From a virus (Duplodnaviria > Heunggongvirae > Uroviricota > Caudoviricetes), in the IMG/VR virus record IMGVR_UViG_2609459797_000004, positions 1-32,091 of that record: a stretch of DNA of 32,091 nt; one strand, written 5' to 3'. This document shows, piece after piece, positions 24,629-29,538 of the stretch. A program made the position numbers and the translations under genes. Below the pieces are notes generated by a model that was given only the letters and a program-made list of their open reading frames with translations, ran no database searches and was not told where the DNA came from. Position 1 is the stretch's first letter. Each line of letters starts with the position of its first letter.

Positions 24629-24690
24629 AACCATCTGCGGTGATGAATTATCTCTAGCGGTGTTGACATAAATACCACTGGCGGTGATAC
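24629..24690 (+). promoter_or_regulatory. Left operator OL3-OL2-OL1 with PL promoter, lambda type
   Basis: AACCATCTGCGGTGATG (OL3), TATCTCTAGCGGTGTTG (OL2), TACCACTGGCGGTGATA (OL1); -35 TTGACA at 24663..24668 and -10 GATACT at 24685..24690, directed toward the N gene. Confidence 0.8.
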
Positions 24691-24759
24691 TAAACACATC
24701 AGCAGGACGCACTACTCACCAGGGCGGTGAATATACAACGATTCGAATATGAATCTACG

Positions 24760-25035: not shown

Positions 25036-25419
25036 ATGACACGCAGAACTCAGTTCAAAGGCAATTCACGTTCTCGTCGTCGTGAGCGTTTAAAGGCAAA
25101 GGCATTAGCTAACGGCGTACTGGCCCGCGAAGAAGCAATAAGTTCAGAAGTATTACACCGCCCTACTCTAAGCAGAGCGCAGATTCAGGCTAAAGGTACT
25201 CACGAAACGCCTGAGCGCAAAGAAGACGCTAAGCCAATTAAGTTCATGGCACAGGACGTGATCTGGCAACAGAAAGAATACAGACGCAATCTGGAGCGAG
25301 CGGCCATTGTGTACGCGAATGAGTTTGGACATAAGCAACCAGAAACTGGTGTATGTCTTCCAAACGTAGCCATTTACGCGGCAGGCTACCGGAAATCAAA
25401 ACAACTGACAGCGAGGTAA
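25036..25419 (+). CDS. N-type transcription antiterminator, P22 gene 24-like (127 aa)
   Basis: N-terminal arginine-rich motif (RSRRRERLKAKALA); C-terminus CLPNVAIYAAGYRKSKQLTAR matches the remembered P22 gp24 C-terminus; GGAGG ribosome-binding site. Confidence 0.75.
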   Translation: MTRRTQFKGNSRSRRRERLKAKALANGVLAREEAISSEVLHRPTLSRAQIQAKGTHETPERKEDAKPIKFMAQDVIWQQKEYRRNLERAAIVYANEFGHKQPETGVCLPNVAIYAAGYRKSKQLTAR

Positions 25420-25422
25420 GTG

Positions 25423-25647
25423 ATGAATCAGACATACATTCCATCATGCTTGAGAAATCTGCCAAAGCAGAAAGCAAAGCCCCGCAAGCAAGCCATAAAG
25501 GACGCTAAGGCAGAGGTTATTGATCAAGCAATACAATTGCTCAGGGAGGAGTTAAGAAGTGGCAAGCTCGAAGGAATGATGATTCCCTATCAGCGCGGAT
25601 ATCTATCGGCGATTAGTAAGTTGGAAGTATTGAAGAGTGAATTATGA
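25423..25647 (+). CDS. Hypothetical early protein (74 aa)
   Basis: ATG 4 nt after the N stop; basic and helical; track ORF starts at the GTG at 25420. Confidence 0.4.
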   Translation: MNQTYIPSCLRNLPKQKAKPRKQAIKDAKAEVIDQAIQLLREELRSGKLEGMMIPYQRGYLSAISKLEVLKSEL

Positions 25648-26336
25648 ACTATCTGGAATTTCCGGATGGTTCATTGTTTTGGCAGCAAACCACTTATTTG
25701 AGAGGAATTAATATGTCATCAATCCGCTTAACTACGAGAATGAAAGAGGAAATCGCTCGTAACGCTTTAATTAAGTCTGGGGTTTTCACTGAACTTGAAG
25801 AAGTAACAAAGTTAAAGAACCAGCTTGCACTTGACGCCAGAGTTATTGCGTTTGGCGGTAAAAAGAAAACTGAGGAAGTGGATCAGTTATCATCCAAGTT
25901 GGTAGCTATAAGTGAAGAACTTGGAAAGATGGGATGTTCATTTTACTCATACGATGTTCGTTCTACTTCAATTTATCTGACTGTATCTGGCAGAAGGGTT
26001 GGATGGCTTTCATATGGGAAAGACGGCAACGGCGAAGATATATTGCTCCCTGCTCCGAACGAAGATAAATGCATGTTTAGCGCAGAACACGAAATAACAA
26101 AAAGGTTTGATGAAATCTGCGCATTGCAACAAAAACTTGAAGCCAAGAAAAAGGATATCGAATCAAATGTATGGGCTGCTTTGAACTCAGTCACAACAGT
26201 TAAGCGACTTATTGAGGTTTGGCCTGAAAGCAAAGAATTGCTACCAAAAGAAGCAGATAAAGCAAGTACAGCACTTCCTGCTTTACGGGTAGAAGATTTG
26301 AATAAGATGATTGGACTTCCTTCCGAGGCCGCATAG
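25644..26336 (+). CDS. Hypothetical early protein (230 aa), function unknown
   Basis: Start overlaps the upstream stop (ATGA); an alternative internal start MSSIRL at 25713 has a GAGG ribosome-binding site; ends inside a terminator hairpin. Confidence 0.45.
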   Translation: MNYLEFPDGSLFWQQTTYLRGINMSSIRLTTRMKEEIARNALIKSGVFTELEEVTKLKNQLALDARVIAFGGKKKTEEVDQLSSKLVAISEELGKMGCSFYSYDVRSTSIYLTVSGRRVGWLSYGKDGNGEDILLPAPNEDKCMFSAEHEITKRFDEICALQQKLEAKKKDIESNVWAALNSVTTVKRLIEVWPESKELLPKEADKASTALPALRVEDLNKMIGLPSEAA

Positions 26337-26350
26337 TCGGCCTTTATTTT
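26326..26350 (+). terminator. Intrinsic terminator overlapping the end of the 230-aa gene
   Basis: AGGCCG-CATAGT-CGGCCT hairpin followed by TTATTTTTGG. Confidence 0.55.
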
Positions 26351-26468
26351 TGGCATAAACAACATAATAAACACAGCACTGTGTATTCATTCCAACGAGT
26401 GAATACACGGAGCAATGTCGCTCGTAATTAAACAGGAGCAGACTTGTTCTGATTGTTGGAAATCTTCT

Positions 26469-26497
26469 TTGCCCTCCAGTGTGAGGGCAATTTTTTT
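26469..26497 (+). terminator. Intrinsic terminator immediately upstream of the next gene's ribosome-binding site
   Basis: TTGCCCTC-CAGTGT-GAGGGCAA hairpin followed by TTTTTTT; GGAGG ribosome-binding site begins 4 nt later. Confidence 0.55.
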
Positions 26498-26509
26498 GAC
26501 GGAGGATAT

Positions 26510-27478
26510 ATGAGTGAAGTAACAGATTTAGTTGTTATTGAAAAAGCAAATGCAATGACTGTATTTCAGTCTGCCGACCAGATTGAAGAAATCCTTCAAA
26601 AGGTTGAACGTGAAGTTATGTCCTTTGTGCCTGATATCACAACGGCAAAGGGCAGAAAGGAGATCGCTTCTCTGGCGTATAAAGTTGCGCAGACGAAAAC
26701 ATATCTCGATGGTCTTGGCAAAGACCTTGTGGCTGAACTGAAGGAAATTCCAAAGCTAATTGATGCCAACCGCAAGACAGTGCGTGATCGCCTTGATGAG
26801 CTGAAAGCCAAGGCGCGCCAGCCTCTTACTGATTATGAGGAAGAACAGGCGCGGATTAAAGCCGAAGAAGAAGCTAAGGCAGCAGCTGAAGCTCTCGCAA
26901 AGCAAATTGAGTCTGACCATGAAATAGCGATTTTGATGGATCGCGAATTTGACCGCCAAAGAGAAGAGGCAAGACTCAAAGCGGAGCAGGAAAAGCGAGA
27001 GCATGAAGAACGCTTAAAAAGAGAAGCTGAAGAGAAAGCCAGATCTGAAGCCGAAGCAAAGGCAAAAGCCGAAATTGAAGCAGCAGCAAGGCGAGAAGCA
27101 GAAGCTAAGGCCGCAGCGGAACGTGCAGAGCGTGAACGCATTGAAGCCGAGCAACGAGCACAGCGCGAAGAAAAAGAGGCAGCAGAACGAGCTGAAAGAG
27201 AAAAGCAGGCGGCAATTGAAGCAGAACGCAGAAAAGCACAGGAGGAGGCTGAACGAATCCGTCGCGAGGCTGAAGCAAAAGAGCAAGCCAGAATAGCAGA
27301 AGAAAAAAGAATCAAGGACGAAGAAGAGCGTAGAGCAAAGGATAAAGCTCACCGGAAAGAAGTAAATAACAAAATACTTGCTGACCTTATCAAGGTTGGC
27401 GCATCAGAAGATGTTGCTAAAAATATCATAACAGCCATCGTAAAAGGCGAAGTATTCGCAACAAAAATAACCTACTAA
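26510..27478 (+). CDS. Charged coiled-coil protein with TolA-like E/A/K/R-rich repeat region (about 322 aa)
   Basis: ATG at 26510 after a GGAGG ribosome-binding site; long central stretch of EAKA/ERAE-type repeats; track ORF starts at the upstream TTG at 26453. Confidence 0.5.
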   Translation: MSEVTDLVVIEKANAMTVFQSADQIEEILQKVEREVMSFVPDITTAKGRKEIASLAYKVAQTKTYLDGLGKDLVAELKEIPKLIDANRKTVRDRLDELKAKARQPLTDYEEEQARIKAEEEAKAAAEALAKQIESDHEIAILMDREFDRQREEARLKAEQEKREHEERLKREAEEKARSEAEAKAKAEIEAAARREAEAKAAAERAERERIEAEQRAQREEKEAAERAEREKQAAIEAERRKAQEEAERIRREAEAKEQARIAEEKRIKDEEERRAKDKAHRKEVNNKILADLIKVGASEDVAKNIITAIVKGEVFATKITY

Positions 27479-27502
27479 TAAAACCAACATAAGGAACCAC
27501 CC

Positions 27503-27634
27503 ATGATTTACGCAATCGCGGGAGGCGCTCGCATGGGTGCCTTCCAATTAAATGAATCTTTACTTGAACGAATCACCCGTAAATTACGTGACGGATGGAA
27601 AAGATTTGAGGTCTTATTATGCGCAATGAAATAG
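27503..27634 (+). CDS. Small hypothetical early ORF (43 aa)
   Basis: Not in the track; AGGAA ribosome-binding site; overlaps the next small ORF. Confidence 0.3.
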   Translation: MIYAIAGGARMGAFQLNESLLERITRKLRDGWKRFEVLLCAMK

Positions 27635-27771
27635 CCATCAATCACCAGATGCTTCGTGCTGCACAGAACAAAGCAGTAATAGCCAGATTTATTGGTGATT
27701 CAAAAATGTGGATTGAAGCAAATAAAGCGATGAAATCAGCTATCAACCTTCCGTGGTATCGCAGGAAATGA
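27619..27771 (+). CDS. Small hypothetical early ORF (50 aa)
   Basis: Not in the track; GAGG ribosome-binding site 8 nt upstream; stop overlaps the next ATG (ATGA). Confidence 0.3.
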   Translation: MRNEIAINHQMLRAAQNKAVIARFIGDSKMWIEANKAMKSAINLPWYRRK

Positions 27772-27878
27772 GTTTTACAGATAACTGGTCAGACGAAGAA
27801 TTTATTCGTCAGATGAAAGAAATGCTCAATCAGCACAAAGAACAGGAGAAAGATGATGATTCTGACTCTGAAAGATGA
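27768..27878 (+). CDS. Small hypothetical early ORF (36 aa)
   Basis: Not in the track; acidic; overlaps the start of the following gene. Confidence 0.25.
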   Translation: MSFTDNWSDEEFIRQMKEMLNQHKEQEKDDDSDSER

Positions 27879-28164
27879 GCGTGAAATATCGCAAATAATC
27901 GCAAGTTTTACTGATGAAGATTACGAACGAATCAACAGTGAAGTTGATCGCCTCTGCAAACGTTGCGACCCAATAAGCGAAATGCTTCGCTCATATAAAC
28001 CAGATGAACACACTAAGGACGCTATCGACTGGCTGGAAGATTATGACTGTAACTATCAGGAAAAAGCCGCTGAATGGTTCTGGGATGCAATAACCGAAAG
28101 AGTTAAGGCTGAATATGCCTTCGCAATATTCAAACGCAGACACGTTTATGGAGAAGCAGCATGA
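27853..28164 (+). CDS. Hypothetical early protein (103 aa)
   Basis: GGAG ribosome-binding site; stop overlaps the recT start (ATGA). Confidence 0.45.
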   Translation: MMILTLKDEREISQIIASFTDEDYERINSEVDRLCKRCDPISEMLRSYKPDEHTKDAIDWLEDYDCNYQEKAAEWFWDAITERVKAEYAFAIFKRRHVYGEAA

Positions 28165-29072
28165 GCAATATCGTTGAATTCGTTAAACAGCAAGAGCAGT
28201 TATTCTGCGGAGCATTGACTGAACAGACGGTGACATGGGCTAAGGAAAGCCAGTTTGCAATTCAGTATTTCCAGAAAAATGATTACCTGGCTAAAACAGC
28301 ACTGGCAAATCCAACCAGCGCACAGAACGCCATCATCAATGTTGCGGCGATCGGTATCACCTTAAACCCGGCTAGCAAACTGGCTTATCTGGTTCCGCGC
28401 GACGGCATGGTGTGCCTTGATATCAGTTATATGGGATTGCTCCATATTGCAATGGAGTCTGGTGTTATCTCATGGGGTCAGGCAAAACTTGTTCATGCTA
28501 ACGATACCTATGAGTCAAACGGGCTTGATAAAGCACCAACCCATAAATACAACGCCTTCGGTGATCGTGGTGATATTGTTGGCGTTTACTGCACAGTTAA
28601 GACGCCAGCAGGTGATTATCTAACGGAAGAGATGAGTCTGGCTGAAATTGAGGCTGTAAGGAAAACAAGCAAGGCAGCATTCAGCGATAAAGGACCATGG
28701 GTAAATCACTGGAATGAGATGGCGCGAAAGACGGTCGTAAAGCGTGCAAGCAAGTATTGGCCTAAGGCATCACGTCTTGATAGTGCTATTCACGTACTAA
28801 ACGAAGAAGAAGGTGTGTGGACTGAACCAGTTATGCCGCACAAATCAGAGGAAGATATCCGCGAAGATGAACGGAAACGACAGCAGGAAATTATGGAAAA
28901 AGCACAACTTCTTTGTGATGAAATGGCTCAGGCTGAAAACATGGATGATTTGAAGCGATATTTTGCAGAAGCATATCGCCTGACATCTGGAATGAAATTG
29001 CAGCAGAACGTACAAGCCATTTACATAGAATGCAAAGCGAAACTGGAGGTTGCCAGTGAGCAAACTGTATGA
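28161..29072 (+). CDS. recT: RecT-family single-strand annealing recombinase (303 aa)
   Basis: GPWVNHWNEMARKTVVKRASKYWP parallels E. coli RecT GPWVTHWEEMAKKTAIRRLFKYLP. Confidence 0.85.
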   Translation: MSNIVEFVKQQEQLFCGALTEQTVTWAKESQFAIQYFQKNDYLAKTALANPTSAQNAIINVAAIGITLNPASKLAYLVPRDGMVCLDISYMGLLHIAMESGVISWGQAKLVHANDTYESNGLDKAPTHKYNAFGDRGDIVGVYCTVKTPAGDYLTEEMSLAEIEAVRKTSKAAFSDKGPWVNHWNEMARKTVVKRASKYWPKASRLDSAIHVLNEEEGVWTEPVMPHKSEEDIREDERKRQQEIMEKAQLLCDEMAQAENMDDLKRYFAEAYRLTSGMKLQQNVQAIYIECKAKLEVASEQTV

Positions 29073-29538
29073 AATTGCCAATGAATACGCAAAATTGATG
29101 GATTCAGATTTAGAACCAGAGATGATTGCTGACACAATAGAAGGCATGGAAGGAGAATTTACCGATAAAATAGAGCAACTTCTTTCCGTCATTAAAAATG
29201 AATCTGGTTATGCTGAACGCCTCAAGGAAGAGGCAAAGTCACTGAATGAGCGAGCCGCAGTAATTCAAAATAAGATTGACAGCATCAAATCATATATAGC
29301 GTCATCGCTTGAAATGGTTGGCAAGAAAAATATTCGAGCAGGTATTCACCAGGTAACAATCCGCAAACCGTCAGAAATTGTAGAAATCATCGACTCAAGC
29401 GCCCTTCCTCCTGAATACGTTGAGTTCGAAACGACAATTAAAGCCGACAAACTGGCAATCAAACACCAACTAAAAGCAGGAATAAATATCCCCGGTGCTC
29501 AACTCAAAGTTGGGAAACCTTCACTTCTTATCAAATAA
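29056..29538 (+). CDS. Coiled-coil recombination-module protein, possibly Gp157-like (about 160 aa)
   Basis: GTG start 6 nt after a GGAGG ribosome-binding site; overlaps the recT 3' end. Family assignment from memory only. Confidence 0.45.
   Translation: MSKLYEIANEYAKLMDSDLEPEMIADTIEGMEGEFTDKIEQLLSVIKNESGYAERLKEEAKSLNERAAVIQNKIDSIKSYIASSLEMVGKKNIRAGIHQVTIRKPSEIVEIIDSSALPPEYVEFETTIKADKLAIKHQLKAGINIPGAQLKVGKPSLLIK

Follow-up and report, generated by a model that had tools for sequence, protein, structure and literature searches.

A charged-stalk protein of the Agt/Mog family in the early-left operon of lambdoid phages

The described systems that lie closest to a phage gene deserve to be set out first. 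This is done here for the gene at positions 26510-27478 of a 32,091-nucleotide (nt) stretch of DNA from the Caudoviricetes record IMGVR_UViG_2609459797_000004 of IMG/VR (hereafter the window, meaning the whole stretch analysed), which encodes a 322-amino acid (aa) protein with a long charged middle part. One such system is phage phi80, in which the GenBank entry for agt reads “anti-toxin for Gam; Mog (modifier of Gam)” and that for gamL “toxic without Mog”. A second is formed by Sf6 and its relatives: Sf6 gene 33, the “TolA” genes of mEp043, mEp213 and mEp234, and the genes of HK544, CUS-3 and IME10 (Orf53) are essentially the same gene, located behind a tL2A-type terminator and before cIII and kil. 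A third is TolA itself, since many copies are named “cell envelope biogenesis protein TolA” at NCBI. Finally, the ER/K-type single alpha-helix (SAH) domains, such as the lever-arm extensions of myosin VI and X, are of importance for the middle part; single-helix spacers of this kind are known mainly from eukaryotic motor proteins.

Family membership, three-part layout and stalk length

Judged by sequence, the window protein is a member of the Agt/Mog family, together with phi80 PHI80_40, Sf6 gp33, Pseudomonas phage D3 Orf53 and PHROG 1376 (“unknown function”), the last of which it matches end to end. It is 51% identical over its full length to phi80 Agt (PHI80_40, AFV29176.1; likewise 322 aa and in PHROG 1376; E = 1e-64), the N-terminal domains of the two being only 42% identical, and both share the same layout and a position in the early-left operon upstream of a RecT module. 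At the nucleotide level, the gene is 98-99% identical over all 969 nt to Sf6 gene 33 and to the genes of mEp043, mEp213, mEp234, HK544, CUS-3 and IME10. Copies also occur in Stx1a phages, and the labels found range from hypothetical through “TolA” and “cell envelope biogenesis protein” to “antitoxin”. Altogether, 530 of 5,426 complete Escherichia coli genomes (about one in ten) carry it. When residues 1-118 were searched exhaustively against clusters formed at 50% identity, 4,957 cluster representatives matched at E <= 1e-3, of which 3,439 passed E <= 1e-10; among the 150 best matches, the aligned part is the N-terminus of proteins mostly shorter than 430 aa. In a phage collection, relatives were found in phages of Pseudomonas, Vibrio, Klebsiella, Erwinia, Yersinia, Acinetobacter, Aeromonas and Sinorhizobium, among others; one search with the N-terminal domain and one with a profile of the C-terminus returned mostly fragments. 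Scans of the window protein with Pfam, NCBIfam and PADLOC gave nothing meaningful, and none of 39 diverse family members scanned carries a Pfam domain. A possible link to DUF1351 of Gram-positive phages was dropped; the head gave no Pfam signal for it even at E <= 1, and Listeria phage A118 has no annotated DUF1351 for comparison. Literature searches found no study of this protein, and a paper on Sf6 evolution is confined to the nin region. The gene has long been sequenced and a homologue named, and it is in this sense a member of a known, essentially uncharacterised family.

An alignment of the 39 members reveals three parts: a conserved head, a middle that varies in both length and sequence, and a conserved C-terminal segment of about 45 residues that closes with I-x-Y (the boundaries in the window protein are given in Table 1). 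The head contains ten invariant residues (T45, R49, S54, K63, D67, G70, K78, D85, R88 and E110), a near-invariant P105-L106 pair and the motif T-x-K-G-R...S-K-T-Y-L-D...P-L-T-x-W-E; the window protein has the motif, all ten invariant positions and the closing I-x-Y. In the C-terminal knob, the stalk helix comes to its end and is followed by a G-x-S/T-E turn, a short helix and the I-x-Y tail; the knob motif G-L-x-E-E-x-A-K...A-I resembles a small helix-turn-helix protein-binding module. Many relatives, including most family members outside the Enterobacteriaceae, have an extra conserved segment of about 60 residues (...ID.SWEEF...A..AKD.A...L...; alignment columns about 200-270) that separates the head from the charged stalk. 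What is left of this segment in the window protein is residues 126-160, which form the only hydrophobic patch of the centre.

Structure prediction with AlphaFold2 (AF2) gave a model of the window protein with a mean predicted local distance difference test (pLDDT) score of 85 and helices at residues 12-20, 22-38, 46-175, 187-295 and 300-311, with a break at 176-186 of pLDDT < 50. An intramolecular helical hairpin, suggested by this first model, was rejected, because the break has such a low score and is missing from a natural 245-aa allele. The model of that allele (mean pLDDT 88.6) has helices at 46-74 and 80-218, with a break at the conserved Pro80, and residues 80-218 form one uninterrupted 139-residue helix of pLDDT 96-98. 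The consistent picture across the models is one long helical stalk that joins a small helical head to a small knob. Foldseek searches of the PDB with both models gave no significant match (best E = 1.7 and 0.33), and a search of BFVD returned unnamed family members only. Similarly, sequence searches against solved structures gave nothing significant, whether the query was the complete protein or a profile of the head or of the knob: the best match for the head was ArfGAP (E = 0.31), and the knob brought up repeat or designed proteins, RuvA domain III (E = 0.14) and a UBA domain (E = 0.75), none of them significant.

The middle part varies in length even between near-identical copies. Twelve alleles that are otherwise > 95% identical encode proteins of 245-333 aa, and all of their insertions and deletions (indels) are in frame and confined to residues 119-240, leaving head and knob untouched. 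The deletions remove 1, 13, 16, 18, 20, 22, 26, 32, 47, 53 or 77 residues and the insertion adds 11, and most junctions carry 5-12 nt of exact microhomology. The 77-residue deletion of the 245-aa alleles equals the 231-nt spacing between two copies of the direct repeat D1, and is recurrent, being found in several E. coli and Salmonella clusters. Stalk length thus shifts by in-frame slippage or recombination between short direct repeats, with the end domains fixed. Variation of this type among related prophages had been proposed as a check in a preliminary description made from the DNA letters alone, and it is borne out.

Genomic neighbourhood and candidate function

On the + strand of the window, which represents a P22-like or lambdoid prophage, the gene order is N, a 75-aa open reading frame (ORF), Nmad5, two terminator-like hairpins, the stalk-protein gene, cIII, kil, a 103-aa ORF, RecT and a Mu-Gam-like gene. 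The upstream genes and recombination modules differ between the phages that share the gene, with Erf, SSB and Abc2 in Sf6, Bet in mEp043 and RecT with the Mu-Gam-like gene in the window. In phi80, kil lies two genes upstream and the order is agt-gamL-recT-exo, so that agt is followed directly by gamL, where the window has cIII, kil, the 103-aa ORF, RecT and the Mu-Gam-like gene instead. Elsewhere, the order is orf53-erf-exo in D3 and erf-x-stalk-protein gene in a Vibrio phage. A survey of 78 loci from different species, based on crude ORF calls, places a single-strand annealing protein (SSAP) of the ERF or RecT type within six calls of the gene in 49 loci and directly beside it in 27. Further neighbours are YqaJ exonucleases and PDDEXK exonucleases (11 loci each, together 22), SSB (17) and Dam (15). 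In several loci of Aeromonas and relatives (L101, L103, L108, L110, L114 and L125), the genes follow a conserved order of PDDEXK nuclease (DUF3799), RecT-like protein of about 350 aa and stalk protein, often with a Dam methylase after them, and the stalk gene lies downstream of the recombinase, not upstream.

The reading that we tentatively favour, without giving it more than an open-minded preference, is that of a soluble cytoplasmic spacer or tether, made in the delayed-early phase, which may assist phage recombination or anti-nuclease functions. The stalk would act as a stiff spacer, about 25 nm long if fully extended, keeping the binding partner of the head at a set distance from that of the knob. 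Putative partners are components of the phage machinery for DNA ends and recombination, namely SSAPs, exonucleases or Gam-type inhibitors of the host RecBCD and SbcCD enzymes. The protein would then be a non-essential accessory or modulator of this machinery, and the phi80 annotation, in which Agt removes the toxicity of GamL, points the same way. The preliminary description had suggested a molecular ruler, an idea compatible with the conserved head-stalk-knob layout.

Several points nevertheless weigh against this reading. The role of Agt in phi80 rests on GenBank annotation. A GamL homologue was not found in the window and was found in only one of the 78 loci, so that a general role of the family cannot be specific to GamL, as annotated for phi80. 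The erf/exo pair of D3 promotes recombination in lambda without orf53 (PMC3945230), and the Agt family can therefore be at most accessory to recombination by annealing proteins. No recognisable SSAP lies near the gene in 29 of the 78 loci, and these 29 have no common neighbour. Among E. coli lambdoid phages, the gene moves with cIII and kil, and the adjoining recombination module is swapped freely; closeness to recombination genes could merely reflect a common early operon. Finally, an alanine stripe with 11/3 periodicity in the stalk could instead support a straight two- or three-helix bundle.

Some of the same observations would be explained by a host-takeover factor of the cIII/Kil type, binding a host structure (for example, proteins of division, proteolysis or the nucleoid), with its proximity to recombination genes being an accident of the operon. 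We consider this unlikely. It draws support from the mosaic block common to 57 E. coli phage loci, which consists of terminator, stalk-protein gene, cIII and kil (about 26350-27780) with both flanks variable: the block is present in 56-57 of the 57 loci (47 over kil), and beyond it the flanks are replaced, most of the remaining flanking sequence being common to only 3-9 loci. The upstream kil of phi80, the 29 loci in which no SSAP is near and the function of the D3 recombination genes without orf53 argue in the same direction. However, phages other than the enterobacterial lambdoid ones lack cIII and kil, and in them the gene still often adjoins ERF or RecT (the 27 loci with direct adjacency, D3 and Vibrio phages), and the phi80 annotation ties Agt to GamL.

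Less probable still is a dedicated antitoxin or chaperone that tempers a nearby Gam-type nuclease inhibitor, as annotated for phi80 Agt and GamL, the stalk being merely structural. The two phi80 annotations suggest it directly, and both the Mu-Gam-like gene downstream in the window and the Abc2-type anti-RecBCD genes of Sf6 and mEp043 would provide suitable partners. These anti-RecBCD partners (GamL, Mu-Gam and Abc2) are non-homologous, though head and knob are conserved; in addition, there is the single occurrence of GamL among the 78 loci, and D3 has no recognised Gam beside orf53.

Returning to the spacer reading, it can be extended to the whole family, at a probability that we would put low. 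Agt, gp33 and Orf53 might represent an unrecognised and widespread accessory of phage recombination or anti-nuclease modules, a 20-30 nm ER/K single-helix tether in which head and knob would bind two partners (for instance, an SSAP or Gam-type protein of the phage on one side, and a DNA-end enzyme of the host or the replisome on the other), with the changeable length tuning their coupling.

The charged stalk compared with single helices, coiled coils and TolA

Residues 150-285 of the window protein are 62% charged (32% E/D, 30% K/R) and 24% Ala, which, together with the long helix of the AF2 models, agrees with the long charged helical protein first described from the DNA letters. Per residue, there are 0.56 pairs of opposite charge at i/i+3 and i/i+4 (z = +4.8 relative to shuffled sequences), and pairs of like charge at these spacings are depleted (z = -4.9). 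The character is shared by the family: a segment rich in E/D/K/R/A/Q is present in 112 of 114 full-length representatives, with a length of 40-161 residues (median 119), and among these 112 the attractive pairs have z > 2 in 90% and the repulsive pairs z < -2 in 95%. That the sequence drifts while its physical character stays suggests selection for a stiff, charged and probably single helix. The stalk resembles the ER/K SAH domains of myosin VI and X in its charge of about 62%, its high and balanced content of E versus K/R, its salt-bridge pairs, the absence of a heptad seam and the uninterrupted helix predicted by AF2, and the balance and pair enrichment on which such domains are recognised are conserved across the family. 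It differs from them in that its 24% Ala is arranged in an 11/3 stripe and that it contains 11-residue units.

These units bear on the heptads of the EAKA/ERAE type that had been proposed for the centre. In residues 150-285, a hydrophobic periodicity of 3.5 residues is absent (z = 0.6 for LIVMFYW, and -0.6 with Ala included), and Ala together with hydrophobics instead follows a periodicity of 11/3 (z = 3.8-5.6). Written in rows of 11, the distal part of the stalk resolves into about eight degenerate units (Table 1). The repeat units of the stalk are therefore hendecads, not heptads, and the heptad proposal has to be given up. Across the 112 family members, heptad periodicity (z > 2) is seen in 2% and hendecad periodicity in 35%, and nothing indicates the canonical coiled coil that the preliminary description had expected. 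The properties of the stalk fit an ER/K-type single alpha-helix or a straight hendecad helix.

An oligomeric rod, that is, a dimeric or trimeric scaffold built on a canonical or hendecad-based coiled coil, would account for the 11/3 periodicity here and in 35% of the family, and could draw on the amphipathic head helix at residues 46-112, with its 3.6-residue periodicity of z = 8.7. Such a rod nevertheless seems unlikely: heptad periodicity is missing from the window protein and from 98% of the family, residues 150-285 contain a large hydrophobic residue only about once in every 12-25 positions, salt-bridge pairs are strongly enriched in the style of ER/K single helices, and the indel sizes keep no one register, with 13, 16, 18, 20, 26, 32, 47 and 53 standing beside 11, 22 and 77.

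Clearly, the comparison with TolA has to separate physical pattern from homology. The preliminary description likened the stalk to TolA domain II, and both are indeed long, charged, Ala-rich helices, enriched in opposite-charge pairs at i/i+3 and i/i+4 and devoid of heptads, which by analogy makes a spacer function possible for the phage protein. The likeness holds for composition and physical pattern only. In a composition-adjusted single pairwise BLASTP comparison, homology is limited to 48 low-complexity residues (E = 0.03), and even the composition differs, as the stalk of the window protein is dominated by E/A/R and TolA domain II by A/K/E (A 43%, K 20%, E 16%). The remaining parts of TolA, namely its transmembrane anchor, its C-terminal domain and its Tol-Pal context, are all missing. 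The window protein has an acidic N-terminus, no transmembrane anchor and no signal peptide, its best 19-residue Kyte-Doolittle mean being 1.03, in the C-terminal knob, as opposed to 2.45 at residues 14-32 of E. coli TolA. TolA domain III (PF06519) is matched neither by the window protein nor by the 39 family members, under conditions in which E. coli TolA, as positive control, scores E = 2e-38. Instead of a tolQ-tolR-tolA-tolB-pal cluster, the gene lies within a lambdoid early-left operon, between N/Nmad5 and cIII/kil/RecT. The transmembrane check asked for at the outset thus found no segment, and the protein is probably cytoplasmic and soluble, since it has neither anchor nor signal peptide. 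The lack of TolA features and the place in an early-left operon beside cIII, kil and the RecT/Mu-Gam module make a location at the envelope unlikely, and the TolA-like action there that had been suggested does not hold up. The idea of a TolA-like envelope protein, which the database name and the shared helical pattern would favour, can accordingly be dismissed as having next to no probability, membership in that family being already refuted by the points above. The name “TolA” is a composition artefact.

Reading frame, accompanying features and implications

The 322-aa ORF is real and coding, beginning with the ATG at 26510 and ending with the stop codon at 27476-27478 of the + strand. Among 71 distinct near-identical alleles, variable sites are found at the first, second and third codon positions of the + frame in a 28:28:85 ratio, and in pairs of about 60% identity, the rate of change at position 3 is about 2.3-fold that at positions 1 or 2, the repetitive centre included. 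This third-position excess supports coding on the + strand, and all indels found among alleles are in frame; the repeat region is conserved as coding in relatives. The DNA of residues 113-300 (E 26%, A 23%, R 15%, K 11%) is 71% purine, with G characterising codon position 1 and A positions 2 and 3. As had been noticed from the letters, GAAGC and GCAGA abound there, with 21 per kb in the centre versus 1.5 per kb window-wide for the former (about 14-fold) and 11.6 versus 1.6 per kb for the latter (about 7-fold); the repeats detected by TRF and a repeat finder are only weak and degenerate.

The long ORFs on the opposite strand had been taken for artefacts of this repetitiveness, and rightly so. 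When the sense codons of the centre were shuffled, the mean antisense open runs were 165 and 124 codons, compared with 171 and 129 observed, and the observed lengths were reached in 42% and 40% of the shuffles; the antisense ORFs are thus a product of codon composition. The wobble-phase test alone cannot exclude one of them, as its wobble phase is common to the sense frame.

With regard to expression, the hairpin directly in front of the gene corresponds to the site annotated tL2A in Sf6, and expression of the stalk protein should consequently require N antitermination. An alternative listed TTG start at 26453 is unlikely, because this hairpin falls within the extension. Between the two terminators lies a perfect 9-bp inverted repeat with no T-run behind it, which might form a hairpin in the RNA or be bound by a protein at the mosaic boundary; the left boundary of the mosaic block coincides with a region annotated as boundary sequence bsq4 in Sf6.

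Table 1. Features of the stalk-protein gene and its surroundings in the window (positions are those of the window; residues are those of the 322-aa protein)
Feature	Position	Strand	Remarks and basis
pL-like promoter	24663-24691		
N	25036-25419	+	
Nmad5 (“nucleotide modification associated domain 5”) protein	25644-26336	+	Pfam, E = 2.5e-71; between N and terminators
Terminator-like hairpin with T-run	26325-26344	+	closes upstream Nmad5 gene
Perfect 9-bp inverted repeat (GTGTATTCA, 10 nt, TGAATACAC)	26381-26408		
Terminator-like hairpin, TTGCCCTC...GAGGGCAA then T7	26469-26490	+	directly 5' of stalk-protein gene
Ribosome-binding site GGAGG	26501-26505	+	4 nt 5' of ATG; direct sequence reading
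Coding sequence, 322-aa Agt-family protein	26510-27478	+	PHROG 1376; same as Sf6 gene 33
N-terminal helical head, residues 1-112	26510-26845	+	alignment; AF2 prediction
Central charged stalk, residues 113-285 (about 170-180 residues)	26846-27364	+	composition; AF2 prediction
Direct repeat D1, copy 1 (GAAGAAGAAGCTAAGGCAGCAGCTGAA)	26864-26890	+	brackets 231-nt deletion together with copy at 27095
Direct repeat D1, copy 4	27095-27121	+	89% identical to copy 1
About 8 degenerate 11-residue (33-nt) units, approximately RAEREx.EAAE, residues 194-281	27089-27352	+	layout in rows of 11; 11/3 periodicity
C-terminal knob, residues 286-322 (about 37 residues)	27365-27475	+	alignment; AF2 prediction
Antisense ORF, artefact	26756-27004	-	
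Spurious antisense ORF, 160 aa, Ser/Ala-rich	26833-27315	-	codon-shuffling test
Spurious antisense ORF, 112 aa, Phe/Leu/Ser/Cys-rich	27014-27352	-	codon-shuffling test
cIII-like gene	27503-27634	+	travels with stalk-protein gene in one mosaic block
kil-like gene	27619-27771	+	final gene of common mosaic block
103-aa ORF	27853-28164	+	PHROG 3486 (unknown function)
Mu-Gam-like end-protection gene	29050-29538	+	PHROG 253, E = 5e-54

Some of the accompanying genes deserve mention in their own right. The Nmad5 segment is common to only about 7-9 of the 57 related loci and looks like a swapped-in module. The overlap of the 103-aa ORF with the start of RecT, through ATGA, points to translational coupling of the two. 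This ORF bears no relation to phi80 GamL (E = 0.1), and it may encode a further accessory protein of recombination. The Mu-Gam-like gene has a TTG-called start 23 nt before the stop codon of RecT, and among the downstream ORFs scanned, the RecT and Mu-Gam module is accompanied by no recognised exonuclease.

What is worth recording about this gene, then, is the TolA misannotation, the size of a family that has neither model nor structure, and a conserved, single-helix-like stalk of tunable length. The “TolA” label, borne by many copies of a gene that is present in about one in ten complete E. coli genomes, is wrong and spreads a misleading function. The family itself spans the Proteobacteria and their phages with thousands of clusters, and comes without a Pfam model and without a solved or structurally similar protein, the genetic hint from phi80 Agt being the one available. 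If the spacer reading is false, the gene would be an ordinary accessory early gene. If it is true, the stalk would be an unusual case of a single-helix spacer from a bacteriophage and a natural length-tunable protein spacer in a virus, and, if the partners that it links act in recombination or against nucleases, the phage Red/RecET-type systems that are widely used in recombineering would gain a new accessory layer.

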